From Spirochaetia bacterium (GTDB lineage Bacteria > Spirochaetota > Spirochaetia > CADAEX01), in the NCBI GenBank assembly GCA_963662795.1, contig OY759746.1:3867450-3931449 (forward strand): 64,000 nucleotides of DNA. Direction: 5' to 3'. The notes under the pieces were generated by a model that had not been told where the DNA came from, did no database searches, and saw only the letters and a list, made by a program, of their open reading frames with translations. Of this stretch, positions 8,758 through 26,806 are shown one piece after another; within the stretch, counting starts at the first letter, position 1, and each line of letters opens with the position of its first letter. The position numbers and the translations under genes were made by a program.

Positions 8758-9207
8758 ATGATGAAAAGAGCATTTTTATCTGCAGCTCTTTTTCTGACCG
8801 CGATGCTCATTTACAGTCAATCCAACGAGGAAATAGACGCATTTATGGCTAAAAAACAGGCGGATGTAGCAACAGCAGCTTACTTCACCCTTTCAGCAGC
8901 CGGAATGCAGAACGCCGCATCCACAGCAGAGGCAGCTCCCGGATACCTTAATGAGAACAAGTGGTTTAAGGAAGAGCTTAAAGGGGATGAGCTGCTTAAA
9001 GCAAGTGACGCATCATACCTTATCATGAAGGCATTCGCGCAGAAAGGCGGCCTTATGTATACAATCGCACCGGGACCGCGCTATGCGCTTAAGGAGATCA
9101 AGTACCTCAAACTCATTGATCAGAAAACAGACCCCGCAAAGATAATGACCGGGGAAGAGTTCATGATACTTCTTTCTGAATTCCTGTCATGGAAGGAGAC
9201 AAACTGA
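8758..9207 (+). CDS. Small secreted protein (SLH-like?), paralog of 23589..24071
   Basis: Signal peptide; GGLMYTIAPGPRYALKE motif shared with the paralog; stop overlaps the next start (TGATG). Confidence 0.7.
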   Translation: MMKRAFLSAALFLTAMLIYSQSNEEIDAFMAKKQADVATAAYFTLSAAGMQNAASTAEAAPGYLNENKWFKEELKGDELLKASDASYLIMKAFAQKGGLMYTIAPGPRYALKEIKYLKLIDQKTDPAKIMTGEEFMILLSEFLSWKETN

Positions 9208-10523
9208 TGAAAAAAGCACTTTTTATTTTACTTGCGGCATTTGCCGCAGTATCGTTAGCATCAGCTGTCGATTTCGGGGGAAACCTTGAAAATTATTCAC
9301 TTATAACCAGCGATGATGATTCACAGAAACAGACAGACAAGGCAGCCCTCTGGTTTGGCGTATCCCCGTCTGAAACAATATATATCAAGGGACAGGGAAG
9401 CGTTGCCTACTCACTCGATGATTACGACTTTCTTGCCGATATTGACTACCTCTATATCACACAGGATTTCCCGGGAGCAATAAATGAGCAATCAGCTTTC
9501 ACCTACAAGGCGGGAAGGTTTTTCCAGTCGGAATTCACAGGTAAAGTATTTGCCCACAGGCTTGACGGGGCTCTTTTTACTCTTGCGCTTCCGATAGCAA
9601 ACTTTTCACTCGGAGCAGGCTATACAGGTCTTTTACTCAAGCCGGTTTCCGGCGTAAACAATACAGCGGCAGATATGGTTGATGATTCTGATGATGATGT
9701 AAAACTTGCACCCAAAAAGATGATAGTAAGACTTGGCGCAAGCTTTATTGATATTATGCCTGCGCAGCAGCTTGATGTTTCGTTTGTAACCCAGTTTGAC
9801 ATGAGAAGCGACGACCTGCTTGAAGACGGCGATGCTGCAACAGAAGACGGCAACGGCGGAAAACTCAACACATACTATATAGGAGCAGGGCTTTCCGGGG
9901 CAATTACAGGTTCATTTATATATGACACATACCTTTATTATCAGCTTGGGAAAACCCTTACCCTGATTGATGACGAATTTACCGATAAACCCATAAGCGC
10001 AATTCTCCTGGGCGGAAGCCTGAGCTACCTTAACAGGGAGTTCTACAGGTCAAAGGTGACCGGGTCTCTGCTTTACGCAAGCGGCGATGACGATAATACC
10101 TCGGTTTATGAAGGCAACACAAAGGGAAGCGGCACACAGTTCATGCCGGTGTCCTCATCTTCAACCGGGCTTATATTCTCCCCAACTCCGTCTAATTTAC
10201 TTAAGGCAGGGCTTGAATACTCAATGAAGCCTTTTGCGGAAAGCAAAAATATGATGAAAAACTTCCAGGCTGCAGTCAGCGCCGGAATTTTCTACAAGGC
10301 ATCTGAAGGAGCTGTTTCGGAGTCCAAGGCTTCGGCAGTCTCTGATGAAAAATACCTTGGAACTGAAGCGCTGCTGACGCTCAACTTCAGGCCGGTATCG
10401 GATTTCGGTCTCACGCTCGCAGGAGGAGCTTTCTTCCCGAACGACAGCAAAGACGGCCCAATGGGTGAGGATTACAGGGATACTGAGGCAGGCGTAATGA
10501 TCAACGTCTCTCTCAGTTTCTAG
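9207..10523 (+). CDS. Outer-membrane beta-barrel protein (copy A)
   Basis: Signal peptide, alternating amphipathic strands, C-terminal beta-signal INVSLSF. Confidence 0.78.
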   Translation: MKKALFILLAAFAAVSLASAVDFGGNLENYSLITSDDDSQKQTDKAALWFGVSPSETIYIKGQGSVAYSLDDYDFLADIDYLYITQDFPGAINEQSAFTYKAGRFFQSEFTGKVFAHRLDGALFTLALPIANFSLGAGYTGLLLKPVSGVNNTAADMVDDSDDDVKLAPKKMIVRLGASFIDIMPAQQLDVSFVTQFDMRSDDLLEDGDAATEDGNGGKLNTYYIGAGLSGAITGSFIYDTYLYYQLGKTLTLIDDEFTDKPISAILLGGSLSYLNREFYRSKVTGSLLYASGDDDNTSVYEGNTKGSGTQFMPVSSSSTGLIFSPTPSNLLKAGLEYSMKPFAESKNMMKNFQAAVSAGIFYKASEGAVSESKASAVSDEKYLGTEALLTLNFRPVSDFGLTLAGGAFFPNDSKDGPMGEDYRDTEAGVMINVSLSF

Positions 10524-10577
10524 CTTTTATACAGATATGATTATGGATGAATTGCATCCAAGTTTTTGGAGGACAAA

Positions 10578-11267
10578 TTGAGATTACATAAAATACACAT
10601 TCCAATGATAATTCTGCTGTTGCTTACATCATCAGCTGTTTTCGCAGCAGATGCAGTAATAAAGAATTTCACAGGAAGGGTTGAGATTCAAAATGCAGGC
10701 TCTTCTGCATGGAGCGCCGTCTCGCAGGGACAGAGCATAAAAACCGGAACACTGATATCAACAGGTTTTAATTCAAACGCAGTACTTGACCTTGGCAGCT
10801 CCGAGATTTTCCTGAAACCGCTTACAAGGGTTTCTGTCGACGATCTTGAGACAAGCGGCAGTACAATCAAGACAGACCTCAACCTGAAGCTCGGCAAAAT
10901 AAGGGCGGATGTAAAAACGACAGAAGGACTCAAGCACAACTTCACCCTGCGCACCCCTGTATCCACTGCCGCTGTACGCGGAACAGTATTTGAAGCCGGA
11001 GTCTCATCCCTTGATGTAATTCAGGGAATGATTGCATATTCAAATAAAATAGGACAGAAACGCAGTGTTGGAGGCGGCTCTTCCTCTTCCATGCCTGGAA
11101 CAGGGTTCAGCTCGCCTGAATCAGCGCTTGAGGCAATAGCCGCAAGTTTCAGCATAGACACAACAACAGCTGTTGAAACCGGTGCCGAAATTATAAGCGA
11201 TTATGTAAAAATCAGGACCACAGGCGAAGGTACAGTTGTCGTTACAGTTATAAGTAAGCCGTATTAA
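10578..11267 (+). CDS. Secreted FecR-domain protein 1
   Basis: TTG start after GGAGG; signal peptide ending VFA; STGFNS, LKLGKI, TPVSTAAVRGTVF. Confidence 0.85.
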   Translation: MRLHKIHIPMIILLLLTSSAVFAADAVIKNFTGRVEIQNAGSSAWSAVSQGQSIKTGTLISTGFNSNAVLDLGSSEIFLKPLTRVSVDDLETSGSTIKTDLNLKLGKIRADVKTTEGLKHNFTLRTPVSTAAVRGTVFEAGVSSLDVIQGMIAYSNKIGQKRSVGGGSSSSMPGTGFSSPESALEAIAASFSIDTTTAVETGAEIISDYVKIRTTGEGTVVVTVISKPY

Positions 11268-11279
11268 AGGAGGTCAGAA

Positions 11280-11747
11280 ATGAAAAAATTATTTTTTTTA
11301 TTTTTACTATTATCAATTTTTTTTATTTCCTGTTATATAACCCCTGAAAGTGATCAGGAAGACAGTGTATTATCTCTGCGGTTACCTGCAGACAGCATTC
11401 CACAAAGAGAGATTGGGGTAGATGAAGCCGGGTTTATGGCAATAATTACAAATGTTAATTTTGAGACTGAAGAGGTAGATGCAAGTTTTTTTAATAATCC
11501 CGAAAATGCATTATATATTGAAGAAGTCACAATCAGTTCTTCATCAGAAGATACCTTCATGGACAATTTACCAATTGAAATCCGTCTTGAAAAGGTTCCA
11601 GAGGGCGATAAAATGTACATCTATCTAATGTATCTTGGGAGTTTAGCATCTGACAATCCTTTTGGATTCTTTTATTCTGAAACCCCATTTTCAATAAAAA
11701 AGGGTGAGATCACTTATATAGAACTAACTGGATATGTTTTATATTAG
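11280..11747 (+). CDS. Lipoprotein (Cys-Tyr type) 1
   Basis: Lipobox FISC; SD AAGGAGG; C-terminal PFSIKKGEITYIEL. Confidence 0.75.
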   Translation: MKKLFFLFLLLSIFFISCYITPESDQEDSVLSLRLPADSIPQREIGVDEAGFMAIITNVNFETEEVDASFFNNPENALYIEEVTISSSSEDTFMDNLPIEIRLEKVPEGDKMYIYLMYLGSLASDNPFGFFYSETPFSIKKGEITYIELTGYVLY

Positions 11748-11774
11748 CTATATTCCGGAAGTATAGTTATCACT

Positions 11775-11804
11775 AAAAAGCCGGCTGTAACACCGGCTTT
11801 TTTT
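11775..11804. terminator. Bidirectional intrinsic terminator
   Basis: AAAAAGCCGG-ctgtaaca-CCGGCTTTTTTT between convergent genes. Confidence 0.85.
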
Positions 11805-11823
11805 ATACACCTGATAACTGTTC

Positions 11824-12252
11824 TCAATTCCGATCCTTCTTTTCAGCTTCCTTCACCATTATACGTTCCTTCACAACAACACTGTCCCGTGTATAGCCGT
11901 GTCTTTCGTAAAAACCATGCGCGAAACGTGTCGTTAAATAACCTCGAATTGTTTTAAGCTCATCAATATTATCTATATAGCACATCAGTTGCTCTCCTAT
12001 ACCCTGTCCCTGATATTCAGGTAAAACAAAGAATTCTGCAAGGTAATACATGGTTGAAAAATCAGTTACAATCCGTGCAAAGCCGACCTGCTTTCTGTCA
12101 AGATACACTCCGATGCAGAAAGAGTTTTCAATAGACTTAACAATAACCTCATCAGGCCTGTCCTTTGCCCAGTAAGACTCTTTATGCAGAAAATCTTTAA
12201 TCATTTCTATATCAAGCCTTGATTTGTCTGTGCTGAATTCAATTTCTTTCAT
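11824..12252 (-). CDS. GNAT-family N-acetyltransferase
   Basis: SYWA, QVGFAR, VLPEYQGQGIG (acetyl-CoA motif), HGFYERHG. Confidence 0.9.
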   Translation of the reverse strand: MKEIEFSTDKSRLDIEMIKDFLHKESYWAKDRPDEVIVKSIENSFCIGVYLDRKQVGFARIVTDFSTMYYLAEFFVLPEYQGQGIGEQLMCYIDNIDELKTIRGYLTTRFAHGFYERHGYTRDSVVVKERIMVKEAEKKDRN

Positions 12253-12491
12253 AAAACCAATCTGCAATAACATAATATAAGTGTCAACCTTCCGTGCAAG
12301 AGATATTCATTCAATTTATTTTCAGAAATTCCTTTTATTTTCATTTTTTCTAAATTATAATTAAATCATTGACTAATGTTTGGTTTAATTTATTTATAAG
12401 TGAATAAAACTGTTTTACCTTTTTTTTCAACTTGAACCGGTTTTACCCAAACTATTCTACTTCTGTCATTTTTTTTATTCAGGAGGGATAA

Positions 12492-13190
12492 ATGATTAAA
12501 GTTAAATTTCCCTTTATAGTCCTGCTTCTTTTTTTACTGTCATCAACTGCGGGATTTGCAGCAGATCAGGCAATTCTGAAAACTCTTTCCGGCAAAGTGG
12601 AACTTAACACAGGAGGCACTTCATGGATCCCGGCAAAACAGGGACAGACAATAGCCAAAGGGACAGTTATTTCTACCGGATTCAATTCAAATGCTGTTGT
12701 AGACCTCGGAAGCTCGGAAATTTTTTTAAAACCTCTTACAAGAATAGCGCTCGAAGATCTTTCAACAAGCGGCAATACAATAAAAACAAACCTTAACCTG
12801 AGGCTCGGCAGAATTGACGCAGATGTTAAAACAACTGAAGGGCTTAAGCATAACTTCACTCTGAGAACACCTGTCTCGACTGCCGCGGTCCGGGGAACCA
12901 GATTCACAGCAGGGGTTGCAATGCTTGAAGTAAAAACCGGCAGGATTTCCTATTCAAATAAAATAGGACAGAAGAGAAGTGTTTCAGGCGGATCATCCTC
13001 TTCTGTTTCAGGCGGCGGCTATACAGCACCTGAGTCAGCGGCTGAAGCAGTTGTCCAGACATTCAGCACTTTAACAACAACAGTTACAGAAACCGGCACA
13101 AGCATTATTGTAAGACCGCCTCCGGCCCTTCCCACAACAGGTACAGTAACAGTCACATGGGATCTGGATGAATCCGGTCTCCCGATGTGA
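12492..13190 (+). CDS. Secreted FecR-domain protein 2
   Basis: Signal peptide; core very similar to 10578..11267 (LKHNFTLRTPVSTAAVRGT). Confidence 0.85.
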   Translation: MIKVKFPFIVLLLFLLSSTAGFAADQAILKTLSGKVELNTGGTSWIPAKQGQTIAKGTVISTGFNSNAVVDLGSSEIFLKPLTRIALEDLSTSGNTIKTNLNLRLGRIDADVKTTEGLKHNFTLRTPVSTAAVRGTRFTAGVAMLEVKTGRISYSNKIGQKRSVSGGSSSSVSGGGYTAPESAAEAVVQTFSTLTTTVTETGTSIIVRPPPALPTTGTVTVTWDLDESGLPM

Positions 13191-13209
13191 AGAAGATAAG
13201 GAGTAATTT

Positions 13210-14076
13210 ATGAAAATAAATATATTTTTATTTATTTTACTAATATTTATTATTTTAATATCCTGTTACCAGCAGCCTGAATCAGCAGATTCAGGATCAG
13301 TATCTATCAGACTTCAGTCAGATATAATGAGGGATGCTCCTGCTGGTTATGACGGGGAACTGGTACTTGCAGTTTTCAAGGCTGGAGATCTTGATTCTTT
13401 GATAGGTTATTCAGGAGGCAGTATAGCTTCAACAGAAATTTCTTACCTCGGTGATTTCCCGACTCCGTTGCTGGCAAACAATTCAGTACCTTTTACCGGT
13501 AGATCAGGAGTAATCTCATTACTGAATGTACCTTCTGACAGATCTCTTTCGCTTCTTGTCGAACATTATGGCGGATTATACGGAGTAGAGGGAACATATT
13601 ATCATTCATATTCCGGAGTATCTGATACATTTGAAGTTAAGGGGGGCGGAACCGCTGAAGTAGCAATTACTCTTACCCCAACAACATATGCTGCCGGGAT
13701 GAGTGTAAATAAATATACTTCCTATACTGCTTCTCATTTCAGATTATATGATCCTACACATCTGAGTACAATTTTACATTTCAACGGTAATGAAATTGAA
13801 TTAATAGATCCCAGTTTTTATGAAACATTTAATATGGAGGATAGGTACGGAACAACAGGAACTGTATCTGGAAATAATGCTATTGTCACATTTGATGTTG
13901 CGGATGCTATTCTTCCAGGAAGAAAGACACGTGTACTTGTCAGTGAAAATCAAACCATCTCTCAAAATAATTTCATAGGAATATCTAATGAATTTGAACT
14001 GAGACCTGGATTATCAGATTATGTAACTGTAACATATTATCAGTACACTTCAAGCAGTTCCTGGAACTACAGCTAA
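13210..14076 (+). CDS. Lipoprotein (Cys-Tyr type) 2, probably two beta-sandwich domains
   Basis: Lipobox LISC; two terminal motifs SDTFEVKGGGTAEVAITL and SNEFELRPGLSDYVTVTY. Confidence 0.75.
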   Translation: MKINIFLFILLIFIILISCYQQPESADSGSVSIRLQSDIMRDAPAGYDGELVLAVFKAGDLDSLIGYSGGSIASTEISYLGDFPTPLLANNSVPFTGRSGVISLLNVPSDRSLSLLVEHYGGLYGVEGTYYHSYSGVSDTFEVKGGGTAEVAITLTPTTYAAGMSVNKYTSYTASHFRLYDPTHLSTILHFNGNEIELIDPSFYETFNMEDRYGTTGTVSGNNAIVTFDVADAILPGRKTRVLVSENQTISQNNFIGISNEFELRPGLSDYVTVTYYQYTSSSSWNYS

Positions 14077-14087
14077 AGCTGACTCAA

Positions 14088-15875
14088 GTGATTAAAGAAA
14101 AATATATCCCGGGTCCTGCAGCATTTTTCGCTGTAGATCCCGGGAATTTTATTGTTTATAATTTTTTAACAAAAAAAATATCTAAAATAACTAAAACCAA
14201 GGCTTACAAATATTCACAATTATCAGGTATTAAAACCATTGATCAGCACAAAAAAAATCAGGTTAATCAATCTGAATCCATTTCAACAATCAATGATTAT
14301 GATTATTTATTTTCAACTTTTATTAAAAATAAACTTCTCTGTCCTCTGTCTTTTTTTAAAGATTCTAATAAGAATTTAGATACTAATTATACAATAACAT
14401 TTATTACATCAAACAGACCGGAATTACTTACAAATGCGTTAAATAGTCTTGCAGAAAAAATATATATCAATCATAAAGATCTGCCTATCATGGTATTTGA
14501 TGACTCATCTGAACCAGAAATAACGGAAATAAACAAAAGTTTAAGTAATGAGATTAAAAATAAATTCGGAATAAAAACATTCTACTTTGGGATAAAGGAA
14601 AAACTACAATTTATTGATTTACTTAACTCAAAAACAGAAGGGAAAATAATCAATAAAGATATATTAAAATTTGCAATTCTGGGGTTTCAGCAGAATTCAC
14701 CCCTTAAAGGGCCGGGTGGAAACAGAAATACAGCTCTCTTAAAACTTGCCGGAAAAAAAGTAATCAGTTTTGATGATGATATACAATATCGTTTTGTCAC
14801 TCACCCTGAAATTAATCATGATATGGAAATAGCATATTTGAAAGATCCGGAAGGTGATCTGTTTTTAAATATATTCAGGGCAGGTGATAAAATTATTAAT
14901 TCTGAAATTGATCCCATTGGTTATATTAAAGAAATTCTGGGAAAAAGCATTAAAACACTCATAAAAAAAACAGAAATAAATAACGGGACTTTATTTACAG
15001 ATAATTTCAGACCAGAGCCTGTTTTTTCACTTGCAAACCAAGAAAGCTCAATAAAAGCTGCAATCTTTGGTATATATGGGGGAAGATGGTACAGCAGCCC
15101 TTTTGGAATCTATTTCAAAAACAATCCTGATAAAATAGTTTTCAAAAAAAAATCTGAATATACCAGCATAAAGGAAAAACCTGTATCTTTAATGCTTCCA
15201 CATCGCCTCACGTTGAGCAGAGCACCATTCTTTGTTGCAACAGCCATGGGAATGGATGCAGGGAATATCCTCCCGCCATTCCCGCCATATGGGAGAAATC
15301 AGGATGGAATTTGGGCAGCTGTAATGCTTGCATTAAACCAAAATGCATTTATATCACATATCCCTATTGCAATCTATCACGAGATGAGCAATAAAAATAT
15401 TTTTACAAATGATGACTATAAAGATGCTTCAGTAGGTTTCGGCATTATTACCGTGTTATTGATAGAACACTGCAGGAAAAAACTTATATCATTATACAGT
15501 AAAGCAACTTATGAAACACTGGGAAATCAGCTTTTCAATATATCTCAGATAACAGATAAACATTTTATTTCATTATGTCACGAGCTCTGGCTTGATTATA
15601 CAGGAAATACAATATGCAACATTGAAAAGAAACTTACTGATAATAAAAGAAAACCAAAACACTGGGCTGAAGATATGGATAAATTTATCGATTTGCTGGA
15701 AAAACAATCATTAGACCCTGGAAACGCACTTCCGAGAGAACTAAGAGACAATTACCCAATAGAGAAGACAATAAGGATATACAAATTATTTTTTAAAGAT
15801 TATGGAAATCTCTTAAAAAGCTGGCCCATTATATGGGAAGAAGCTTTTAATTTGAATATTGAAAAGGAAAACTGA
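14088..15875 (+). CDS. Hypothetical GT-A (GT2-like) glycosyltransferase with RRE/PqqD-like N-terminus, paralog 1
   Basis: FITSNRPELL, VFDDS, GGNRN, SFDDD, GRNQD; AT-rich. Confidence 0.6.
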   Translation: MIKEKYIPGPAAFFAVDPGNFIVYNFLTKKISKITKTKAYKYSQLSGIKTIDQHKKNQVNQSESISTINDYDYLFSTFIKNKLLCPLSFFKDSNKNLDTNYTITFITSNRPELLTNALNSLAEKIYINHKDLPIMVFDDSSEPEITEINKSLSNEIKNKFGIKTFYFGIKEKLQFIDLLNSKTEGKIINKDILKFAILGFQQNSPLKGPGGNRNTALLKLAGKKVISFDDDIQYRFVTHPEINHDMEIAYLKDPEGDLFLNIFRAGDKIINSEIDPIGYIKEILGKSIKTLIKKTEINNGTLFTDNFRPEPVFSLANQESSIKAAIFGIYGGRWYSSPFGIYFKNNPDKIVFKKKSEYTSIKEKPVSLMLPHRLTLSRAPFFVATAMGMDAGNILPPFPPYGRNQDGIWAAVMLALNQNAFISHIPIAIYHEMSNKNIFTNDDYKDASVGFGIITVLLIEHCRKKLISLYSKATYETLGNQLFNISQITDKHFISLCHELWLDYTGNTICNIEKKLTDNKRKPKHWAEDMDKFIDLLEKQSLDPGNALPRELRDNYPIEKTIRIYKLFFKDYGNLLKSWPIIWEEAFNLNIEKEN

Positions 15876-15877
15876 AT

Positions 15878-17686
15878 TTGACTGATAAATATTATCCTGC
15901 TTTTCTTGAATTTAAAAAAGCAGGTGAAAACAAATATTTCGTTTTAAACAGAAATGATCAAACAACACATATCATTAGTAGTTTTGAAGGAGAACTTTTG
16001 AGGAGTCTTTCAGGTTGTAAAACATGGGAAGAACATCTGGAGAATATCAGGGAAACTGATAAATATGGAATAGCAGATGCTGTTTTACTAAAAAGCTTCA
16101 ACAATTGGATTGATAGAGGATTTCTCCGAAATGAAATACTTATTTCAAACCCAGGAATAAACAAATATTCAGACAATGAGAAGCAGCAAATTATTTCTGG
16201 ATGCATAACCTGTAATCGCCCTGACATGCTGGACAGATGGCTGAAATCGAGGGTAAGAACACCAGATTATAAAGAGAAAAAAACCCAAATTCTGATATGC
16301 GATGATACTATAAATTCCAAAATATCTGAAAGAAATAAAAATATTATAAACAATCATAAAAAAGATTATGCCGGAAAAATTGCATACGTTGATAACAGAA
16401 AAAAGAAAATACTATCAGAATTGATAACACAATCAATATCTCATGATTTGCCAGAAGGCCTTGTTGATTTTGGTTTGTCTTTAGATGAAAATTTACATGT
16501 CAAAAACACAAGAGGCGGAAATAGAAATACAATGACACTTGCATCTGCCGGATTCACTCTGTATTCAAGTGATGATGATATTGAATACAGTTTTTTCTCA
16601 CGTCAAAACCAGCAATCAGATGAATATCATTTTGTTGATAATTTCAATTCGCCAACAACTTTTTATCCAGATATGAACTCCCTGAATTCAGGTATTACCT
16701 CTTTAGAGAAAATCAATCTATTAAAATGTTTTGAATCATTTATAGATTCAGATATATCATCTCTTTTTAAAAACAATGCTTCTGTTTTTCTTGATAATAT
16801 AACAGCAGAATCTGCCATGTTTGCTGAACAAAATATACTCCAGATCAGGGCAATTGGTGCAGGTTATTGCGGCGGCAGATGGTATCAGAATCCATTTATA
16901 CCGCTGTTCCAGCAGGATAGAGAGAGAGAACTTTTTTTTTACGACTATGAAAATTATAAATTTATCAGGAATAATGGATTGAATATAAAATCAGCAGACA
17001 ACTATACCCTTCACAACGACAATTTTCTAATGGGTGGGACCTTTTGTATAAATAATAAGAATATCATTTCACCGTGCCTTCCCAGAGGAAGAAGGGATGA
17101 TACGAACTTTGCAATTATCCTTAACAAGTGCCTTGAGCCTGGACTTACACTTCATCTCCCTTTTGCTTTGTATCACAATCCTGATGAAAAACCTCCGTTT
17201 TCAAAGAAGAATTTTATGGATGTATCTCTGGAAACAGGAATATACTCTAATCTACTTCTTGAAAAACTTACTTCATCGTTTCTAAATCCGGGGAGAAAAG
17301 AACGCTTACAAGAACTTGGCTTTCGTTTTCAGGAATTCGGGAAGCTTAAAACACCTGATTTTGAAGAGCAGCTTAAACTCATGCAGCTGGGATTTTTAAC
17401 AAAGATAATGAATCACATAAGTTATCTTCTTGATCTTTATGAAAGAGAGCCCATCTGGTGGGCGGAGGATATGGAAAAATATTACGAGCTGCTTAAAAAG
17501 GAAGCATTGTCATCTGAGAGTGTAGTGCCGAGTGAACTTCGCAGTTCAGGCACAAAAGAGGAAAGCCTTGCAGCTTTTCAGAATTACATTTTCAAATGCG
17601 GTGAGATGCTGCAATGGTGGCCGGAAATATGGGAAGCTGCCAGAGTGATAAACCAGGAAGGAAGAGGTCCAATAGATATTGATTAA
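15878..17686 (+). CDS. Hypothetical GT-A (GT2-like) glycosyltransferase with RRE/PqqD-like N-terminus, paralog 2
   Basis: ITCNRPDML, ICDDT, GGNRN, SSDDD, GRRDD; WAEDM and WPxIWE shared with paralog 1. Confidence 0.6.
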   Translation: MTDKYYPAFLEFKKAGENKYFVLNRNDQTTHIISSFEGELLRSLSGCKTWEEHLENIRETDKYGIADAVLLKSFNNWIDRGFLRNEILISNPGINKYSDNEKQQIISGCITCNRPDMLDRWLKSRVRTPDYKEKKTQILICDDTINSKISERNKNIINNHKKDYAGKIAYVDNRKKKILSELITQSISHDLPEGLVDFGLSLDENLHVKNTRGGNRNTMTLASAGFTLYSSDDDIEYSFFSRQNQQSDEYHFVDNFNSPTTFYPDMNSLNSGITSLEKINLLKCFESFIDSDISSLFKNNASVFLDNITAESAMFAEQNILQIRAIGAGYCGGRWYQNPFIPLFQQDRERELFFYDYENYKFIRNNGLNIKSADNYTLHNDNFLMGGTFCINNKNIISPCLPRGRRDDTNFAIILNKCLEPGLTLHLPFALYHNPDEKPPFSKKNFMDVSLETGIYSNLLLEKLTSSFLNPGRKERLQELGFRFQEFGKLKTPDFEEQLKLMQLGFLTKIMNHISYLLDLYEREPIWWAEDMEKYYELLKKEALSSESVVPSELRSSGTKEESLAAFQNYIFKCGEMLQWWPEIWEAARVINQEGRGPIDID

Positions 17687-17740
17687 GTGTTCCCGGTGAT
17701 TTTTTAAAAAACCCCCGGCAGAAAAATAAGGAAAATAAAA

Positions 17741-18718
17741 TTGAAAAAAATACTTGTTACAGGCGGCGGCGGTTTTATCGGCTCGCACCTGTGTGAAAAA
17801 CTTTTAAATGACGGTAATTCTGTTATCTGCCTTGATAATTTTTACACCGGCAGCAGATATAATGTTGAGCACTTAACCGGTAATAAATATTTTAAACTCC
17901 TGATTCATGATGTAACTGTTCCGGTCAATATTGAAACAGATCAGATATATAATCTTGCATGCCCGGCAAGTCCTGTTCATTATCAGTCCGATCCGGTACA
18001 GACAATAAAAACGTCTGTTCAGGGCGCAATTAATATGCTTGAACTCGCTAAAATAACCGGAGCGCGAATTCTTCAGGCTTCAACATCAGAGGTTTACGGA
18101 GATCCGGAAGTTCATCCCCAGAAAGAAGATTACTGGGGCAGGGTCAATCCTATTGGTATCAGAAGCTGCTATGACGGAGGGAAAAGGTGCGCGGAAACCC
18201 TTTTTTTCGATTATCACCGCCAGTACGGCGTTCAAATAAAAATTGCAAGAATTTTCAATACCTATGGACCAGGTATGCAGTCGAATGATGGAAGAGTTGT
18301 AAGCAATTTTATTGTACAGGCACTAAAAAATGAAAATCTTACGATTTTTGGTACAGGGAAACAGACCAGAAGTTTCTGTTATGTTGATGATATCGTAGAT
18401 GGTTTGGTTAAGCTAATGAACAGCCGGGATAATTTTACAGGCCCTGTCAATATCGGCAATCCTGATGAAATTTCAATACTTGAACTGGCTGAAAAAGTAA
18501 TCTCGCTGACCGGTTCCTATAGCAGCCTTGTTTACAACCCTCTGCCGGCCGATGATCCTCAGAGAAGGAAACCGATAATTGACCTTGCTGTGAATGAGCT
18601 GGGATGGCAGCCTGAAACAAAAATGCAGGAAGGGTTAAAGAAAACGATTGAATATTTTAACGGCGTCCTTTCCCGGAAAAATCAGGCTGGGCCGGTTCAA
18701 TTCAAACCGGCCCATTAA
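17741..18718 (+). CDS. UDP-glucuronate decarboxylase (UDP-xylose synthase), SDR family
   Basis: [47 protein letters not shown]. Confidence 0.92.
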
Positions 18719-18734
18719 TATTCTATTTAAGGAT

Positions 18735-21467
18735 TTACTTAACTCCCAGGTTGAATACTCCGTCCCAGTTGGCTGCCGGCGGGGTTTTCCTGTATTTCTG
18801 ACACCTGTCCATAAATGTTGAGGCCGGCCCGTCTTCCGGCAGGAGTTTTAATATCTCGCTGAAAAGTTTTTCCGCCTTCTCCCATTCTTTTTCCTCAAAA
18901 GCATCAAGCGCGCCGTGAAACAGTTCAACACCTTCAACAGTTTTACGGTCTGCGGCCGACTTTTCCTCCAGTATTTCATAAAGCCTTACCGGAGTATTTA
19001 TTCCGACAACCCTTACCCTGTCGAGCTTTCTGAATAGAAAAGCATCCCCTGCCTGGTCTGCTGTTGATTCGCTTGTAAGCAGCCATGTTCCGTACTGCTT
19101 GTTGACTCCTTCAAGCCGGGCCGCGAGGTTTACAGCGTTTCCCATTATTGTATAGTCCATCTTCCTGGGAGTTCCCATGTTGCCGACAACCATCTCGCCT
19201 GTATTGACTCCTACCCTGGTAAGAAGAGGTGAAGGAGTAAGAGAATCACGCATGAATCTTTCATTAAGTTCCTTTTCCTCCCTCTTCATTCTTATCGCGG
19301 ACATACATGCCTTGTATGCGTGGTCTTCAAGATCAATCGGGGCACCGAAGAAGGAGATAATCGCGTCCCCTTCATATTTATCAATTGTCCCCTTGTATTC
19401 AAGGATAATGTCGCTCATCGCGGAAAGATAATAGTTAAGAAGCTTTACAAGGTCCTGCGGATCAAGGTTTTCAGATATTGTCGAGAACCCCTTAACATCG
19501 GTAAATACAGCTGTAAGGTTTTTCTTTTCCCCTCCGAGGTTCAGCCTGTCCGGGTTAAGGATAAGCTGGCTGATAACGTCAGCCGACAGGTATCTTGAAA
19601 AGGCGTTTCGCAAGAAACTTTTCTCGCTTTCGCTCTTTATGAATTTCATTATTGAAAGCGCAAGAAATGTAAAAAAGATTACAAGGACAGGAGTCAGAAT
19701 CGGAAGATATATTTTAAGAAAAATAAAGATTCCTGCTCCCGCGAGTATTACAATAAAAAGGAAAATCAAACCAATAAATACAACCTTTTTAGGGTCTGTT
19801 TTTCTGGTTGTGAATGTTACAAGAAAAGCAAATATTGAAGCTATAATTCCGGAAATTGAAACAGGCAGCTCTGTAATAAAATCACCGGAAAGGATTGTGT
19901 TTGCGACTGCCGCGTGTGTGCCGACATTCATGTAGTTTTTTTCAAACGGGTTTACGCCGATATCTGTTGTTGATATACCAGTATAGCCCATAATCGCAAA
20001 TGAACCGGCAAGTTCTTTTTCAAGTATTCCCCTTATTTCCATAAGCTTTCTGTAATCACCGTCTACAGCGTCGAATACAGTTTCCACTTCACTGCGGATT
20101 GCAAGATATTCATCCTTTTTCGAGATATCAAAATCAGGATGGGCAATAATTTCATCTATACGGCCGATAATCGCTTTTTCGGCGTTCCCGTCAAGCAGCT
20201 CTCCCAATCCCTCAAAAAACATTTTCCTCACACTGCGGTATTCTTCCATCTCTTCCGGGGCCCTTAACTCTTCCAGTATATCGTCCCTGATGCCGTCGCT
20301 GTACCTGTAAAGATCAAGCAGCGGGGTATCGCCTCCGTAAAATGATAAATATCCAGCCTTATCCATTATTTCAAGGTTCATCATGATGTTATCCAGAAGC
20401 TTGTCATGAACTACAAGGTTGTTGAAGGAAAGCTGTCTGAAGCTGTCAGCGAAAAGTTTTTTCGGCCAGTGGATGAGCATTTTGCCCTCTTCCGTAAGAG
20501 GGATTGTGATATCACGTAAAGAACCGTCAGGATATTTCGCTCCTTTTAAAGTAACGCGGCTGCCTGTTACAGATATATCCGGATTCCCAAGGTAATCAAA
20601 AAGAGGGGCAGCTACAAGCTGGGGATAGAGTTTGCCTTCGTATTCTTTAAAGACATCAATCCGCCGCCTTACGCCGTCATCATCAACGACAACGTTGGGG
20701 AACCCAGCCCCCTTCCCTTTTGAAATGATGGGAAGAATTGCGGGCTGAAGAGATTTTGCCTTTTCAAAAATTTTATTTTTTTCAGGATCAAAGCCTGATA
20801 CTTTAACAGGTATGTTTGATTTAACATAATCGGTAAGATCTTCCCTGACATTGATGAGCTGAATATCATCAGGGAGCATATTGACCGTAAAGAAAGCCGT
20901 ATCAAAAAGTCTTGCAGTTTTTCCAAGATAGATATCATTATCCCTGGCAATATGCTGTACTGCATCCAGCAGCTGTTCTTTCAGGGAATCTGTAAGTCCC
21001 GCAAGGTCGTTGACATAGTCTTCGGCATCCCTCACATGAATTGATCCGTTTGCAATTGCGGTAAAAAGGCCGGTGATATTGTCCTTAAGCCCTGCGAACT
21101 GGCTGCTGAACAGATCAGGGATAATTTCCTCAAGGTAGCGGGAATCTATCCCCTGGGGGCTTCTGTCCACATACTCAATATCAAAAACAACATAGGCAGT
21201 TTCAAACTCCTTCATCAGTATAAGACCGTCAGCGACAATGTCGCGGCTCCACGGCCAGACTCCTACCTGGGCTATGGCAAGATCATCTATGTTAAGCAAG
21301 AGTATTTCCTGTCTTTCTTCAATTGTTGGTTTTATATTAAGCAGCACATCATAAATCCTTTTTTCCGCTACCCTGTATACAGGCAGTAGGAGCAGAAGCG
21401 CGAAAAAACCGGAGACGACTGCCGGAATTATAAAGAGTTTCCATTTATCCAGGATTATTTTTTTCAT
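18735..21467 (-). CDS. CHASE2-domain class III adenylate cyclase (copy B)
   Basis: Full-length paralog of 5923..8625 with the same catalytic motifs. Confidence 0.92.
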   Translation of the reverse strand: MKKIILDKWKLFIIPAVVSGFFALLLLLPVYRVAEKRIYDVLLNIKPTIEERQEILLLNIDDLAIAQVGVWPWSRDIVADGLILMKEFETAYVVFDIEYVDRSPQGIDSRYLEEIIPDLFSSQFAGLKDNITGLFTAIANGSIHVRDAEDYVNDLAGLTDSLKEQLLDAVQHIARDNDIYLGKTARLFDTAFFTVNMLPDDIQLINVREDLTDYVKSNIPVKVSGFDPEKNKIFEKAKSLQPAILPIISKGKGAGFPNVVVDDDGVRRRIDVFKEYEGKLYPQLVAAPLFDYLGNPDISVTGSRVTLKGAKYPDGSLRDITIPLTEEGKMLIHWPKKLFADSFRQLSFNNLVVHDKLLDNIMMNLEIMDKAGYLSFYGGDTPLLDLYRYSDGIRDDILEELRAPEEMEEYRSVRKMFFEGLGELLDGNAEKAIIGRIDEIIAHPDFDISKKDEYLAIRSEVETVFDAVDGDYRKLMEIRGILEKELAGSFAIMGYTGISTTDIGVNPFEKNYMNVGTHAAVANTILSGDFITELPVSISGIIASIFAFLVTFTTRKTDPKKVVFIGLIFLFIVILAGAGIFIFLKIYLPILTPVLVIFFTFLALSIMKFIKSESEKSFLRNAFSRYLSADVISQLILNPDRLNLGGEKKNLTAVFTDVKGFSTISENLDPQDLVKLLNYYLSAMSDIILEYKGTIDKYEGDAIISFFGAPIDLEDHAYKACMSAIRMKREEKELNERFMRDSLTPSPLLTRVGVNTGEMVVGNMGTPRKMDYTIMGNAVNLAARLEGVNKQYGTWLLTSESTADQAGDAFLFRKLDRVRVVGINTPVRLYEILEEKSAADRKTVEGVELFHGALDAFEEKEWEKAEKLFSEILKLLPEDGPASTFMDRCQKYRKTPPAANWDGVFNLGVK

Positions 21468-21617
21468 AAGTACCTATCCCCTTAATTAAAAAGTATATGT
21501 GATTTTCTTATTTATTTACAACCAATAATTTTGTTTTTCCGGCACGGGGTATATTTTTGAGCATTATGGGTTTATAATAATTTTATAATAAATTAATTCG
21601 GGAGGATTATCTTAGAC

Positions 21618-22641
21618 GGCCAGAAATTCCTAGCGCAATAAACTAATATTGTGACAGGAGTTTTAAGTGAGTTACAAAAGAATGAATCTCAATGAAAGAA
21701 TGGCCATTTTTCAGATGATTTACACCAAAAGATTAAAGCTATCACAAATAGCAAGTAATCTTGGCCGAAGAGCTTCAAGTATTACAAGAGAAATAAAACG
21801 CGGTACTGATGAAGGATATTACAATCCTTTAATTGCAGAGTATGAGCATTTAAGGCAAAGAAAAAATCAGAGCCCCAAATTAAAAATAGACAACAAGTCA
21901 TGGCAGCTTATAAAACCCAAACTCCAACTCCGGTGGTCCCCACAGCAAATTGCCAAATGGCTGGAAATAAATTATCCTTCAGATAAAGTGAGTGATAAAA
22001 CAATTTATAACTATGTCCATTTCCACATGAGGGGAGAGCTTAAAAAACTAGCGCTTAAAGATTTAAGACTCAAAGGAAAGAAAAGAAAGAGTGCAAATAA
22101 GGACGAAAAACGGGGTAAATTAAAAGATATTACCCTTATAGACGAAAGGCCTGCTGAAATTAACTCACGGAAAGTTCCAGGACACTGGGAAGGAGATCTT
22201 CTCATTGGAAAGGACCATAAATCAGCAATCTGCGTAATAGTTGAACGTAAAACTAGGTTTATCCAGCTTGATCTGTTAAAAACATATGATGCAAATACAG
22301 TAAGAAAAACAATAGAGAAAAGGTTTAAGAAGATATCTCCTCTTCTAAGAAAATCTCTGACTCTTGATCAGGGTAAAGAGAACAGTGAGTTCAAAAAACT
22401 CAAAGAAAATCTTAATATTGATGTATACTTTTGCCATCCGGCATCTCCCTGGGAAAAGGGAACATGTGAAAACACAAATGGCTTGATTCGTGATATGCTT
22501 GATGAAGTAGATGATTTCAGAAAGCTTTCGCAGTATGATGTATCACGAGTAGCAAGGCTATTGAATGAGAGGCCAAGAAAAACTCTTGACTTCATAACAC
22601 CTAAAGAAGCTATTGCCAATTTGCGCTAGGAATTTCTGTGC
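21618..22641 (+). mobile_element. IS30-family insertion sequence
   Basis: Perfect 18-bp inverted repeat CAGAAATTCCTAGCGCAA (21621-21638 and 22621-22638); probable 2-bp target duplication AC (21616-17 and 22642-43). Exact ends are slightly uncertain. Confidence 0.88.
21667..22629 (+). CDS. IS30-family transposase
   Basis: HTH, WSPQQI, GHWEGD, TLDQGKE, PWEKGTCENTNGLIR, LNERPRKTL. Confidence 0.95.
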   Translation: MSYKRMNLNERMAIFQMIYTKRLKLSQIASNLGRRASSITREIKRGTDEGYYNPLIAEYEHLRQRKNQSPKLKIDNKSWQLIKPKLQLRWSPQQIAKWLEINYPSDKVSDKTIYNYVHFHMRGELKKLALKDLRLKGKKRKSANKDEKRGKLKDITLIDERPAEINSRKVPGHWEGDLLIGKDHKSAICVIVERKTRFIQLDLLKTYDANTVRKTIEKRFKKISPLLRKSLTLDQGKENSEFKKLKENLNIDVYFCHPASPWEKGTCENTNGLIRDMLDEVDDFRKLSQYDVSRVARLLNERPRKTLDFITPKEAIANLR

Positions 22642-22646
22642 ACATT

Positions 22647-23454
22647 ATGAAAAAGATTATTTCCTCGCCTTTAATGCTTATCTTTTCAATTCTAATACTT
22701 ACAGGCGTATTTTTCTCAGGATGCAATTCAGATACCACATCCGACGGCGGGAGATGTTATCGGGACATGGATCAAGGTCTGGGAAGGTGACCCTTACCAG
22801 ATTCCTTCGGAAGGTGAAGGGCCCTTCGCAGATACCCTGATCTTTGATGTCGGGGACACCGCACTCGAAGCTGTTTTTTATATGAATACCGAACAGGTAG
22901 GCGGGTTTAAGGGAACATATTCAATTAGTGATGATGAAATTGTTGTTTCAGTGACCCATACATGGAATGAGGAATGGGATTGGGAAGGAGAGAACGATCC
23001 TGTGTGGAATGAAGAATCCGATGAATATGTTTTCCTTTTTACTCCCGGCAGCAGCACTCTTGCAGTAACAGATTTCTATGAAGAAGTTATTGTAATGGAT
23101 AAGATAACATTTGGAAAACCGGACTTTCTCTCCGATCCGCCGTTTGGATGGTTTGACGGGGAAAGTGTATATTTAGCATTTGAAGTGACTGGTGAAAATC
23201 CTTATAGTTATGTGTGGGGTTCTCAATACAAACTTGGCACATGGGATGCATCCGGGACAGAGAACGGATATATACGCACTGTTGTGACTAGTTATAGTAT
23301 AGGAGACACCGCGCCATACTTAAATCTGAATTGGGGGTTTCTAAATCCTTATAGTTATTATAAGGGTGAAGGTATTCAGCTTGATATAGAGATGTATTAC
23401 GGTGATGGTATTACCACTATCACATTCGAACCTGATACGGCATCCATCGAATAA
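22647..23454 (+). pseudogene. Frameshifted lipoprotein (lipocalin-like)
   Basis: ATG 22647 gives MKKIISSPLMLIFSILILTGVFFSGC (lipobox). The mature part PTAGDVIGTW...VFYMNTEQ continues in the +1 frame into ORF 22882..23454. Confidence 0.7.
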
Positions 23455-23588
23455 TCAGTATGTTCATGATAAACAGCATTTTTTTCACTCTTTTCTGGTT
23501 TTTACTGGAAAAGCATTTTATAATTATAGGAAGCATTATTGCGTTTAAATACGGAATTGATAGAGATTTTAACTTAGGAGGTAGTTTA

Positions 23589-24071
23589 ATGCCTTTTTTT
23601 ACTGGCAAAAGGATTCTGAGAGCAGCTTTAATTGCAGTTATCTTCTGCTGTGCTGTGTTCACGGTTTCCGCGGATTTTAATACGATACTTGATTCTATCC
23701 TTACAGAGGATAAGATATCCTTCGGCAGCGCGTCATATATTCTTCTGACAGGTTCAGGAGCACTGAGTGAAGACGCAACCATCGAAGAGGCGGCCGCTAA
23801 AATGGCTGAAATGATTCCGCAGGCAGACGCATCGGCGGATAAACCTGTAACTATGGGTGAATTTTCCTATATGGCTATGAAAACATACGGGATAAGCGGA
23901 GGAATAATGTACCGCTTTTTTCCAGGCCCACGCTACGCAATCCGCGAACTGAGATACAAAAAAATAGTACAGGGAAACGCATACAGCGGTATGAACCTTT
24001 CATCTGAAAGGGCCTTGAGGATTATGGGCAGGGTACTTGACAGGGAGGAGTCGAAAAATGCGGAAAAATAG
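23589..24071 (+). CDS. Small secreted protein (SLH-like?), paralog of 8758..9207
   Basis: SD AGGAGG; signal peptide; GGIMYRFFPGPRYAIRE. Confidence 0.7.
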   Translation: MPFFTGKRILRAALIAVIFCCAVFTVSADFNTILDSILTEDKISFGSASYILLTGSGALSEDATIEEAAAKMAEMIPQADASADKPVTMGEFSYMAMKTYGISGGIMYRFFPGPRYAIRELRYKKIVQGNAYSGMNLSSERALRIMGRVLDREESKNAEK

Positions 24072-25356
24072 AATTATTTTTACAACAGTAATAGTGATGA
24101 TGCTTCTCGCTCCGTCATGTATCTTTGCGATTAGTATGGAAGCAGGCGGCACTTTTTATAACAGCACGGGTTTTGTCTCAGACGGTATTGAAGATACAGA
24201 CCTTGAGCAGCTTAATACACTTACCTTGCGTTTTGATGCGTACACGGAATCGGAAACAGGGGCCAACGGCACATTCACAGCTCAGGGAAGGTATGAATAT
24301 ACTGATGAAAGATCATTCCTCCTTGACGCCGAAATATTACGTCTTAAAGGGGCATTCCCCGGCGCAATGGGAGAAACATCAATAATTGAGGCATCTGCCG
24401 GAAGATTTTTCTTCAGCGACCCGGCAGGGATGATACTCACCCATACCGCAGACGGAGCTTCCTTTGAGCTGATGTATCCGAAGGTAAGGCTTATGGCAGC
24501 AGGAGGATATACCGGATTGATTATCAATCCTTCGAGCGATATAAGGATGACCCGTATAGACTTAAGCGAAACAGATCTTGAAATGGAAGATAATTTTTAC
24601 GGGCCGAAAAGAGCTTTCGGCCAGTTCGGCTTAACATTTCCTGAACTCTGGTGGCTCAACTCCCTATCTCTTTTTACCCTTGCACAGTTTGACCTGCGGG
24701 ATGAGGATGAAGGAACTGTTATGAATACACAGTACCTTGGAGTACAGACTGAAAGAAGCTACGGCAGGAACCTTTATCAGGACCTTTTTTTAATCCTTCA
24801 GGCCGGACAGCTGAAAACACCTGACCTCGAAGACAGGGTCGGCTACGGACTGCTTTTAGGGCTCCGCCTCAGATACCTTAAAGAGAATTTTTTCGGTTCA
24901 AGGTTTGAATTCAGGGCCCTTGGTGCCCCTCCCGATATTTCTACAGACGATCTTTCAGACAAGATTCCATTCGGAGTTCTCGGATTTGTCCCCATGAATC
25001 AGCCTGATCTCGGGGAAGCGGTTTCACCGTCACTTTCAGGTCTCGGGCTTTTTGACCTCAATTATTCCTTCAGGCCGTTTTACAACAGCAAATCAGAAAC
25101 TGCGGCAGGAATTCAGCCTGGTTTAGGGGCAAAAGGATATTTTAGGACATACTCGGTTAAAGTTGACTGGATAGACACAGATCCTGATTCAGACTCTCTT
25201 TATCTCGGCACTGAAATTAATGCCTCGCTGGTCTGGAGAATTTTTTCCGATCTCGGAATTGACATAAATGGCGCTTATTTTATTCCTTCAAGCACAATCT
25301 CTGAAGACATGGATACAATATGGGCGCTCAATTTTAATTTATCTGTAAGTTTTTAG
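24058..25356 (+). CDS. Outer-membrane beta-barrel protein (copy B)
   Basis: Signal peptide; AGRFF, H..DGA, GYTGL, YLGTE, SDxG shared with copy A; ends FNLSVSF. Confidence 0.78.
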   Translation: MRKNRIIFTTVIVMMLLAPSCIFAISMEAGGTFYNSTGFVSDGIEDTDLEQLNTLTLRFDAYTESETGANGTFTAQGRYEYTDERSFLLDAEILRLKGAFPGAMGETSIIEASAGRFFFSDPAGMILTHTADGASFELMYPKVRLMAAGGYTGLIINPSSDIRMTRIDLSETDLEMEDNFYGPKRAFGQFGLTFPELWWLNSLSLFTLAQFDLRDEDEGTVMNTQYLGVQTERSYGRNLYQDLFLILQAGQLKTPDLEDRVGYGLLLGLRLRYLKENFFGSRFEFRALGAPPDISTDDLSDKIPFGVLGFVPMNQPDLGEAVSPSLSGLGLFDLNYSFRPFYNSKSETAAGIQPGLGAKGYFRTYSVKVDWIDTDPDSDSLYLGTEINASLVWRIFSDLGIDINGAYFIPSSTISEDMDTIWALNFNLSVSF

Positions 25357-25373
25357 TTTAGGAGGTATCAGGT

Positions 25374-26075
25374 ATGATACGTAAAATGTTTATTTTTTAT
25401 TTGTTATTGTTGATAGTATCTGCTTCTGCGCTCTACGGGGCAGCACAAAACGCAGTTGTTGTTTCAGCTTCAGGAAAGGTCGAGTACAAGGCGGAAGGGG
25501 CCGCATGGACCGCTGTAAAAGAGGGAACAGAGATTCCGCCCGGCTCAACAATTTCTACCGGTTTTAATTCAAAAGCAGTTATTGAGATGGGCTCATCCAC
25601 CCTTGAAGTTAAGCCCCTTACAAGGATGAGGCTTGATAAACTTGCGGAACAGGACGGAGTTATATCTACAGACCTCTTCCTCAGAGTCGGCAGGGTAAAA
25701 GCGGAAGTAAAGGCAGTTGAAGGGCTGCAGCACAGTTTTACCTTAAAAAGCCCGGTTACCACTGCGTCCGTTAGGGGAACAGGATTTGATTTTGACGGCG
25801 TAAACCTAAAGGTAAGAAACGGCGTTGTAAAAATGAGCAACAGGTTCAGGCATTCAGCATCGTATAAAGCCGGTGAATCCGGCTCTTCCACCGGTATAAC
25901 TCCTCCGAAGGGAGGCTCTGAAGGACGGGAAAGTGATATAGTTGTGAGCGCAGACACATCCGATGTTTTAGGCGGAGGAGAAGATACCGATCCCACAACG
26001 TCAGGGGGCGGAAGCTCTTCCGGTGTCCAGTACGGCAGCATTGGCGTCAACTGGACCGTCTACATTGTTGAATAA
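25374..26075 (+). CDS. Secreted FecR-domain protein 3
   Basis: STGFNS, KPLTR, SPVTTASVRGT; Ser/Gly-rich tail. Confidence 0.85.
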   Translation: MIRKMFIFYLLLLIVSASALYGAAQNAVVVSASGKVEYKAEGAAWTAVKEGTEIPPGSTISTGFNSKAVIEMGSSTLEVKPLTRMRLDKLAEQDGVISTDLFLRVGRVKAEVKAVEGLQHSFTLKSPVTTASVRGTGFDFDGVNLKVRNGVVKMSNRFRHSASYKAGESGSSTGITPPKGGSEGRESDIVVSADTSDVLGGGEDTDPTTSGGGSSSGVQYGSIGVNWTVYIVE

Positions 26076-26092
26076 TAGGCAGGGAGGTTTAT

Positions 26093-26806
26093 ATGTTTAA
26101 TAAAAATTTTATTTTAAAAACAGTTTTGCTGTTTTTTGTCATACTGGCATTCGGCGGGTGCTATCAGATGATTGAATCATCTGAAGGAGACCTTGTTCTT
26201 AATGCTTCAATTCCAGCCCGCGCAGCAGAAAACCTGTCGGGAGATATATGGGTCGTAGGTATTGTCCTTGATGCCGCGTTTGAAGAACAGCTTAAAGAAA
26301 TCAACAGGATAGGCGATATCCAGGATGCAGATGACGGAATTGAGGATTATCTTGATGACGATCTGGATGATCTGTGGCAGGATGCAATTCAGAAAGGGGC
26401 TGTCCGCTTTGACGGAGGACGTTTTTATTTCCAGTTCAAAATGACTATACCCGATTCTGATACAGGGAATTTTACAATTTCAGGAATCCCTGCAAATAAA
26501 AAATATTTTCTCTATGTAGCAGTCTTTGATAATGAAGTTACATCTCTTGATGAGTTTGATGAAGACCCTGGTCTTGTTATGGATATAAGGTATTATGACC
26601 CTGCTGATATTGCTGATCCCTTTAACAGAATACCTGACAGTACTCCTGCCGGATGGTATTGTTTCAAGGATTGGGATTTTGAATATAACAACGGAAATCC
26701 TCGGCTTGGTACCGACACTGAAATCTGGACAACTGCATCAGAGCAGCCGTTTACCGTGGAAGCAGGTAAAGCTACATCGGTCGATATACTTCTTGTAGAT
26801 TTTTAG
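26093..26806 (+). CDS. Lipoprotein (Cys-Tyr type) 3
   Basis: Lipobox FGGC; acidic; C-terminal PFTVEAGKATSVDILL. Confidence 0.75.
   Translation: MFNKNFILKTVLLFFVILAFGGCYQMIESSEGDLVLNASIPARAAENLSGDIWVVGIVLDAAFEEQLKEINRIGDIQDADDGIEDYLDDDLDDLWQDAIQKGAVRFDGGRFYFQFKMTIPDSDTGNFTISGIPANKKYFLYVAVFDNEVTSLDEFDEDPGLVMDIRYYDPADIADPFNRIPDSTPAGWYCFKDWDFEYNNGNPRLGTDTEIWTTASEQPFTVEAGKATSVDILLVDF

Follow-up and report, generated by a model that had tools for sequence, protein, structure and literature searches.

In 64,000 nucleotides of a Spirochaetia bacterium genome (assembly GCA_963662795.1, contig OY759746.1, positions 3,867,450 to 3,931,449; hereafter the window), three genes for exported FecR-domain proteins are each followed by a gene for a predicted lipoprotein. 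These pairs belong to a cassette that is real and conserved and appears to be undescribed, and structural modelling supports the fit of the C-terminal strand of a FecR protein in a groove of its lipoprotein. We further infer that the lipoprotein is cleaved, that FecR is threaded through an outer-membrane barrel and that the pair is coupled to an adenylate cyclase. Searches of the open-licence literature turned up no account of the cassette and none of a donor strand on FecR. Each part has a known analogue; it is their combination that these searches did not find.

Composition and conservation of the cassette

The window is spirochaetal, and its FecR-lipoprotein pairs lie on the plus strand at 10566-11267/11280-11747, 12492-13190/13210-14076 and 25374-26075/26093-26806, each lipoprotein gene starting 12-19 nucleotides past its FecR gene. 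Upstream of pairs 1 and 3 are genes for a secreted protein of ~150 amino acids and then a barrel of ~440 amino acids, and a divergent CHASE2 adenylate cyclase gene lies opposite each on the minus strand. In cassette 1 these encode a small signal-peptide protein (8716-9207, likely start 8758), an outer-membrane β-barrel resembling the alginate-export protein AlgE (9189-10523, with a C-terminal Phe) and an adenylate/guanylate cyclase, the proposed output (5923-8658, likely start 8625; Pfam CHASE2 9e-28, Guanylate_cyc 7e-21). Their counterparts in cassette 3 are a second small protein (23460-24071, likely start 23586), a second barrel (24037-25356) and a second cyclase assigned by Pfam (18735-21467). 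All three FecR proteins match PF04773 (3e-7 for FecR1, likely start 10605), begin with a signal peptide and have no cytoplasmic domain.

A scan of GTDB confirmed 205 related stretches, and our locus counts rest on 78 loci listed from these, 75 of which come from records naming a spirochaete. The order in Spirochaetia is a divergent CHASE2 adenylate cyclase, a small periplasmic protein, an AlgE-like barrel, a FecR protein with a signal peptide and a variable lipoprotein. Carriers include cultured Marispirochaeta-type strains, and these spirochaetes are free-living. With the window included there were 83 FecR open reading frames (ORFs), 78 of them closed and 77 with downstream DNA. A lipoprotein, with lipidation predicted from a signal and a Cys, directly followed 74 of the 77 closed genes, the window's three among them. 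The exceptions were two frameshifted members in locus L009 and a partnerless gene in L042. The other neighbours were counted on six-frame segments, fragments included. The barrel was directly upstream of FecR in 76/92 segments (our script overlooked two more, in L058 and L060) and the small protein upstream in 67/84, while a CHASE2 cyclase lay within 10 kb in 58/79 and was divergently adjacent in 44/79. Some FecR-lipoprotein pairs had no adjoining barrel, and TolC or ABC genes did not recur in the cassette. What looked like barrel-FecR fusions at two of the loci, L058 and L060, proved to be reading-frame artefacts, and none of 37 longer matches (7999 candidates scored) was a natural fusion of FecR to a lipoprotein domain, which is weak evidence. 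FecR-TPR-barrel fusions turned up among distant FecR matches (P0300).

The barrel is a stand-alone protein with 17 candidate strands in a crude scan. Of its homologues, 11/57 matched PF13372 (best 8.5e-6), with Atlas values of 0.97-0.98; against PDB sequences its profile gave a weak partial match alone (E 0.012). The small secreted protein has a conserved G-x-x-Y-x-x-F-P-G-P-R-Y-A motif, present in the first window copy, and no match in Pfam, NCBIfam or PDB. Rfam had no match anywhere in the 64-kb window.

The lipoprotein is the variable part of the cassette. A tree of FecR grouped the lipoprotein families (13 changes versus 41.4 when shuffled), which shows co-inheritance only, and GC content at third codon positions (GC3) was lower in the lipoprotein gene than in FecR in 56/72. 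In locus L056, tandem copies at 5317-8159 and 8353-11171 differ at 9/2284 nucleotides up to codons in the middle of the tail. Beyond that point the copies part, in the end of the tail and in the lipoprotein alike, and GC falls from 60% to 42-44%, the barrel and FecR body being near-identical; this pattern may stem from assembly collapse. Extra lipoproteins for one FecR occurred at five loci. In L004, one FecR (9950-10693) has three successive tail-like strands, and three lipoproteins accompany it (7781-8791, 8845-9807, 10711-11748). A rule of one tail strand per lipoprotein fits this locus alone and was rejected, as it fails at L008, L014, L037 and L051.

The FecR tail and the lipoprotein groove

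The initial annotation had proposed that each FecR protein ends, after a flexible Ser/Gly/Thr linker, in an isolated β-strand resembling the first strand of the lipoprotein, and the tail, first-strand and Arg-loop motifs it quoted are all present in the window translations. The tails are GEGTVVVTV in FecR1 (11223-11249, the proposed donor strand, from its sequence and family conservation), GTVTVTW in FecR2 (G217-W223, 13140-13160) and YGSIGVNW in FecR3 (26031-26054). We collected 768 FecR homologues and took tail statistics from the best 120 less one truncated entry. The isolated strand was borne out: an h-x-h-x-h pattern occurred in the last 22 residues of 110/119 homologues, whereas the two preceding blocks of 22 residues had it in 11/119 and 0/119, and shuffled sequences in 14.6%. 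Across 109 aligned rows the tail consensus is G217-[TS]-V-x-V-x-W223, with 94-100% hydrophobic residues in the V219, V221 and W223 columns.

The linker, initially described as flexible, is structured in part. The FecR domain, with an invariant G135-T136 (109/109 rows; 12894-12899 in FecR2), extends to about residue 167. In the same rows G-[YF]-x-x-P180 comes next, followed by a helix and then by F191-x-V193-x-x-x-T197. Only after these comes a spacer rich in G, P, T and S (13083-13139 in FecR2). Measured from T197 to V219, its length lies between 15 and 27 residues in every one of the 109 rows, with a median of 20, and its identity is 12% versus 54% in the FecR domain (every third row). A fixed length with a free sequence is as expected of a ruler.

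We co-folded one pair, the whole mature FecR2 (residues 24-232) with lipoprotein 2 lacking residues 1-23. The interaction prediction score from aligned errors (ipSAE) was 0.73, and the best of three controls scored 0.01. The ipSAE mark is reached by 116/157 solved complexes and 2/215 mismatched pairs, a calibration that is rough here because our own alignments were used. At least 59% of contacts agreed between runs, with a partner predicted local distance difference test (pLDDT) of at least 66. In the model, the groove of the strand-less lipoprotein was filled by the FecR2 tail and by no strand of the FecR domain, as had been predicted. The confident interface comprised FecR2 residues 213-231 only; in it, V219-W223 lies alongside two strands, 82-86 in antiparallel and 130-134 in parallel orientation. 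From transthyretin topology, we take this groove to be the first strand's own slot. The co-fold shows that the tail fits the groove and does not imply binding itself.

Lipoprotein 2 (Cys 13264, anchor-like first strand 13291-13317, Arg 13330) was modelled from 69 sequences as two tandem sandwiches (pLDDT 84, predicted template-modelling score 0.82), with its first strand at residues 10-18 and a loop around Arg23 of low confidence (pLDDT 60). The modelled fold is transthyretin-like, in agreement with the initial annotation, and pilins are among its top matches. Compared with 48,161 chains, the best hit was the pilotin ExsB (Z 8.5, root-mean-square deviation (rmsd) 3.0 over 99 residues); pilotins serve secretins. 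Further matches were BT_1938 (Z 7.9), the Vibrio pilotin 5wec (Z 7.8) and, among the pilins, Mfa2 (Z 7.3, rmsd 11.2 over 188), BACOVA_04078 (Z 7.2, 4.3 over 101), BDI_3522 (Z 7.1, 3.4 over 92), Mfa1 (Z 6.4) and FimA (Z 5.5-5.6). Strand 10-18 aligned with the first (anchor) strand of Mfa2, BACOVA_04078, BDI_3522 and FimA. The Z values are low, so pilins are not singled out, and Foldseek returned a mixture of Gram-positive and type V pilins at TM-scores of 0.16-0.26. The nearest named Atlas clusters of lipoprotein 1 were DUF4458, DUF4493 and Mfa2 at 0.84-0.85, a lead only, and homologue rows matched DUF4493 (3/56) and Mfa2 (1/56) at E 0.006-0.04, below cut-offs. The lipoprotein profile matched only partial fibronectin-III stretches among PDB sequences, and a word-index search for relatives gave 6 matches.

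All lipoproteins share the N-domain, which is followed by nothing, a second copy, insertions, an NHL/SGL propeller or fn3 repeats. In the window, judging by their sequences, lipoprotein 1 has a single sandwich domain (Cys 11331, first strand 11361-11384, Arg 11406) and lipoprotein 3 one that carries long insertions (Cys 26159, first strand 26183-26206, Arg 26219). The terminal F-x-[IVL]-x-x-G-x4-[IV]-x-[ILV] motif noted earlier is present in all three, twice in the two-domain lipoprotein 2. A Cys-Tyr start also holds for these three, but fails as a family rule (37/74). Short lipoproteins stop 5-18 residues past the last-strand motif, without a donor strand, in 28/29 of those listed.

An Arg in the loop after the first strand, present in the window, had been suggested as a processing site. 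Across the family, with automatic boundaries of which several are wrong and with kin kept in, this loop contains Lys or Arg in 52/70 cases (32.5 expected from same-length windows), Arg in 26/70 and [KR][AGS] in 38/70 (10.8 expected). In the two-domain family, Lys or Arg is found in 22/22 first-domain loops versus 9/22 equivalent second-domain loops. We infer cleavage in this loop, mostly at Lys or Arg; because the residue is often Lys, or absent in whole sub-families, 'Arg processing' is too narrow a term.

Two GT2-like genes of ~600 codons each follow lipoprotein 2 (14088-17686, plus strand; Glycos_transf_2 1.7e-5 for the first) and appear accessory, accompanied by a nucleotide-sugar decarboxylase-like gene (17741-18718). 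Genes of this cluster occur in 12/79 loci; besides the window, such a pair follows the lipoprotein in L003, L004, L007-L010, L014, L037, L049, L056, L058 and L061. Where the pair lay no more than 2.5 kb away, the lipoprotein ended in Cys or Ser in 10/13 cases, and where no such gene was present in 3/42, kin not being controlled for. It is possible that the pair carries out C-terminal S/O-glycosylation of the lipoprotein; by eye, we take the N-terminal part of these proteins to resemble a peptide-recognition module. A secreted protein of ~330 amino acids with no Pfam match recurs near one lipoprotein family, at L069:7968-8969 and at 13 further loci; in most cases it is encoded on the opposite strand.

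Other window features include a GNAT acetyltransferase gene between pairs 1 and 2 (11824-12273, minus strand), also present in L001 and L002. An IS30-family element with perfect 18-nucleotide inverted repeats (21621-22638) separates cyclase 2 from cassette 3, and the cyclase 2 counterpart is split in L001. A lipoprotein-like gene at 22647-23454 has a frameshift near 22750; its L001 relative is an intact ORF of 272 amino acids. ExbB/ExbD-family genes at the window end (62841-63916) are distant from the cassettes, with no link shown.

A possible tether and its alternatives

We judge it somewhat more probable than otherwise that the cassette encodes a one-subunit, type V-like tether. Sec would export FecR, whose folded domain would be held in the periplasm as a stopper, and the ~20-residue spacer would pass through the cognate barrel and present the tail strand outside. 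The lipoprotein would sit at the surface on its lipid anchor and, as loop conservation suggests, be cut past its first strand, mostly after Lys or Arg, leaving a slot that the tail would take as modelled. The variable lipoprotein part (second sandwich, β-propeller or Fn3 repeats) may be the sensor, and binding or pull on it may alter the FecR domain, perhaps across the putative G-T self-cleavage site, and hence the cyclic AMP output of the CHASE2 cyclase. Such a geometry would apparently connect, from one side of the outer membrane to the other, two proteins of unrelated kind in a phylum other than that of type V pili, and would offer a TonB-free path from a surface signal to an inner-membrane cyclase. 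What CHASE2 domains sense is stated to be unknown (PMC5192318), and the tether would offer a candidate for it.

Threading is favoured because of the gene context, with its barrel and CHASE2 cyclase, and because of the RTX-plug fold of FecR. In the FecR1 model (110 sequences, pLDDT 70), residues 27-99 matched 5ix9 (Z 9.0, rmsd 2.2 over 72), and no other of the 48,161 chains reached Z 5. Foldseek gave E 0.042 and probability 1.00 for this match and nothing at E ≤ 0.001. The 5IX9 structure is described as a periplasmic domain of the MpIBP adhesin that is too large for its pore, the next ~40 Å segment being modelled inside the pore (PMC5550230). The G-T dipeptide corresponds to the self-cleavage site of E. 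coli FecR, where signalling is reported to need the fragments to part (PMC12036975). A bolder form of the tether, in which a self-cleaved FecR plug reaches through the barrel to capture a processed, horizontally swapped tip lipoprotein, the whole acting as a pull cord, worked by tension or by a ligand, to switch the cyclase, is one we would sooner doubt than accept. If true, it would mean that spirochaetes too use type V strand exchange, and use it for signalling. FecR-type proteins would then be the protein ligand long sought for CHASE2 domains, and the FecR domain would be connected with the RTX retention plug.

Several observations weigh against the tether. We had removed the first strand on purpose, and the controls were unrelated folded proteins rather than strand peptides; with the slot thus emptied, the pass may reflect generic domain completion or likeness to solved sandwiches. 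The FecR2 tail engages the first domain of lipoprotein 2 only, and type V donor strands are reported to enter the second domain as well (PMC13655056). FecR2 lacks a barrel of its own, no protease candidate was found among recurring cassette genes, and two lipoproteins accompany one single-strand tail at four loci. The fold Z values are middling, with pilotins leading or tying with pilins, and by the automatic count 18/70 loops have no basic residue, Gln or Met standing there in some sub-families. The RTX-plug likeness comes from a FecR model of pLDDT 70 and probably extends to FecR domains generally, which makes it an analogy. The proposed mimicry of the first strand by the tail stood up as a generic likeness and not as a pair-specific one: compared with the first strand of their own lipoprotein, tails scored 4.47, and with partners permuted the score was 4.37 (p = 0.43). 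Within families p was 0.63, and Gly concordance gave p = 0.20, with registers set automatically and several of them wrong. The tail score against the second strand was 0.26, and the first strand was the best window in 9/70. A generic likeness suits interchangeable tips.

Of the alternatives, the most serious, although we consider it rather unlikely, is that the tail binds an uncut, lipid-anchored lipoprotein, displacing or adding to its first strand, possibly at the periplasmic face in the manner of a pilotin. The leading or tied fold matches to ExsB and 5wec and the loops lacking Lys or Arg would suit this, and the co-fold cannot separate cleavage from displacement. The excess of basic residues in first-domain over second-domain loops argues against it, however, as do the co-occurrence of the barrel and the fixed spacer length. 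The highly variable, AT-richer lipoprotein genes, with their lower GC3, suggest exposure. It is less likely again that the tail's real partner is the barrel, to which it would dock or which it would plug, or else some different protein of the cassette; the likeness would then be a generic G-x-V-x-V strand start and the fit mere domain completion. The missing pair-specific mimicry would suit this, as would the same pattern at the opening of the second domain of lipoprotein 2, and the tail is often Trp-ended, like an outer-membrane motif. Yet tail end and lipoprotein diverge jointly in L056 beside a near-identical barrel and FecR body, pairs exist that have no adjoining barrel, and the second conserved short strand, F-x-V-x-x-x-T, is free for the barrel. 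The three tail strands with three lipoproteins in L004 point the same way, as one case that four other loci do not fit.

We see slightly less chance still that barrel, small protein and FecR form an export or display device holding an adhesin, the cyclase being merely a co-regulated neighbour. The likeness of the FecR N-half to an adhesin retention plug would fit, as would the 21/79 FecR segments with no cyclase within 10 kb; against it stand the frequent divergent adjacency of the cyclase, the adjoining CHASE2 and FecR genes reported for a Burkholderia operon (PMC5192318) and the reported requirement of Sinorhizobium CHASE2 cyclases for an outer-membrane barrel (PMC13001267, PMC7529298). That the tail simply folds back on the FecR domain is very improbable. 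In the FecR1 model it pairs locally at pLDDT 64-73, but shows no confident packing even with 110 sequences, and with the whole FecR2 present in the co-fold it went to the lipoprotein rather than back, which argues against fold-back and agrees with the initial annotation.

Relation to known systems

Type V strand exchange has been described as unique to Bacteroidia and a route to adhesive fibres (PMC13655056). With the type V pilins (FimA/Mfa1-5), as described there, the tether would share a lipoprotein with an N-terminal anchor strand, a basic-residue loop, a transthyretin-like sandwich and a slot filled by the C-terminal strand of another chain, here in a model. A constant N-domain with a variable head is also reported for type V tip adhesins (10.1101/2024.11.15.621889), and tip pilins likewise have no donor strand. 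Here, in contrast, the host is a member of Spirochaetia, most cassettes contain no stalk or anchor pilin genes, and the donor would be a non-pilin, periplasmic FecR, its short strand serving a single domain; barrel and cyclase genes are linked to it as well. As the lipoproteins have no donor strand, no polymer would form. Overall the suggestion of type V pilus-like exchange is supported in part, through the modelled strand fit; a type V pilus proper is ruled out by the host class, the missing stalk and anchor pilins and the lack of donor strands on the lipoproteins.

Pilotins of the ExsB/YscW type are also lipoproteins with one transthyretin-like domain (Z 8.5 and 7.8), but there is no secretin here and many of the lipoproteins have large variable C-terminal domains. 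RTX retention modules (MpIBP RIN, LapA RM) share the fold of the FecR N-half and a proposed plug-linker-pore layout (PMC5550230, 10.1101/198937). They differ from the cassette in its Sec signal, its 230-residue FecR protein, its AlgE-like barrel instead of TolC and its outer part, which would be a separate, captured chain. FecI-FecR-FecA shares the FecR domain with its G-T dipeptide, where pulling the fragments apart is reported to be the signal (PMC12036975). An anti-sigma system of that kind was rejected, since the FecR proteins here have neither a cytoplasmic anti-sigma domain nor a membrane helix that is retained, and the cassette has no extracytoplasmic function sigma factor or TonB-dependent receptor.

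The logic of the cassette is nearest, by analogy, to NsrA with its CHASE2 cyclases and to the Burkholderia LysM-FecR/CHASE2 kinase operon. The latter (BiofilmReg, with PA4035-PA4036) is reported to pair an exported FecR-domain protein with a CHASE2 sensor (PMC5192318), but its output is through a histidine kinase, it contains LysM and Ig domains, and it lacks both barrel and tail strand. In Sinorhizobium meliloti, NsrA-CyaD1/CyaD2/CyaK are reported to combine CHASE2 adenylate cyclases with an outer-membrane β-barrel (PMC13001267, PMC7529298), a combination seen here as gene linkage only, and a FecR-domain protein, SMc02177, is listed in the regulon (PMC5498481). NsrA is one protein of ~1200 amino acids whose barrel loops are the proposed sensor, whereas here the barrel, FecR and swappable lipoprotein sensor are separate. 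If the cassette alone proves true and the tether does not, it would be a novel form of the NsrA-CyaK kind.

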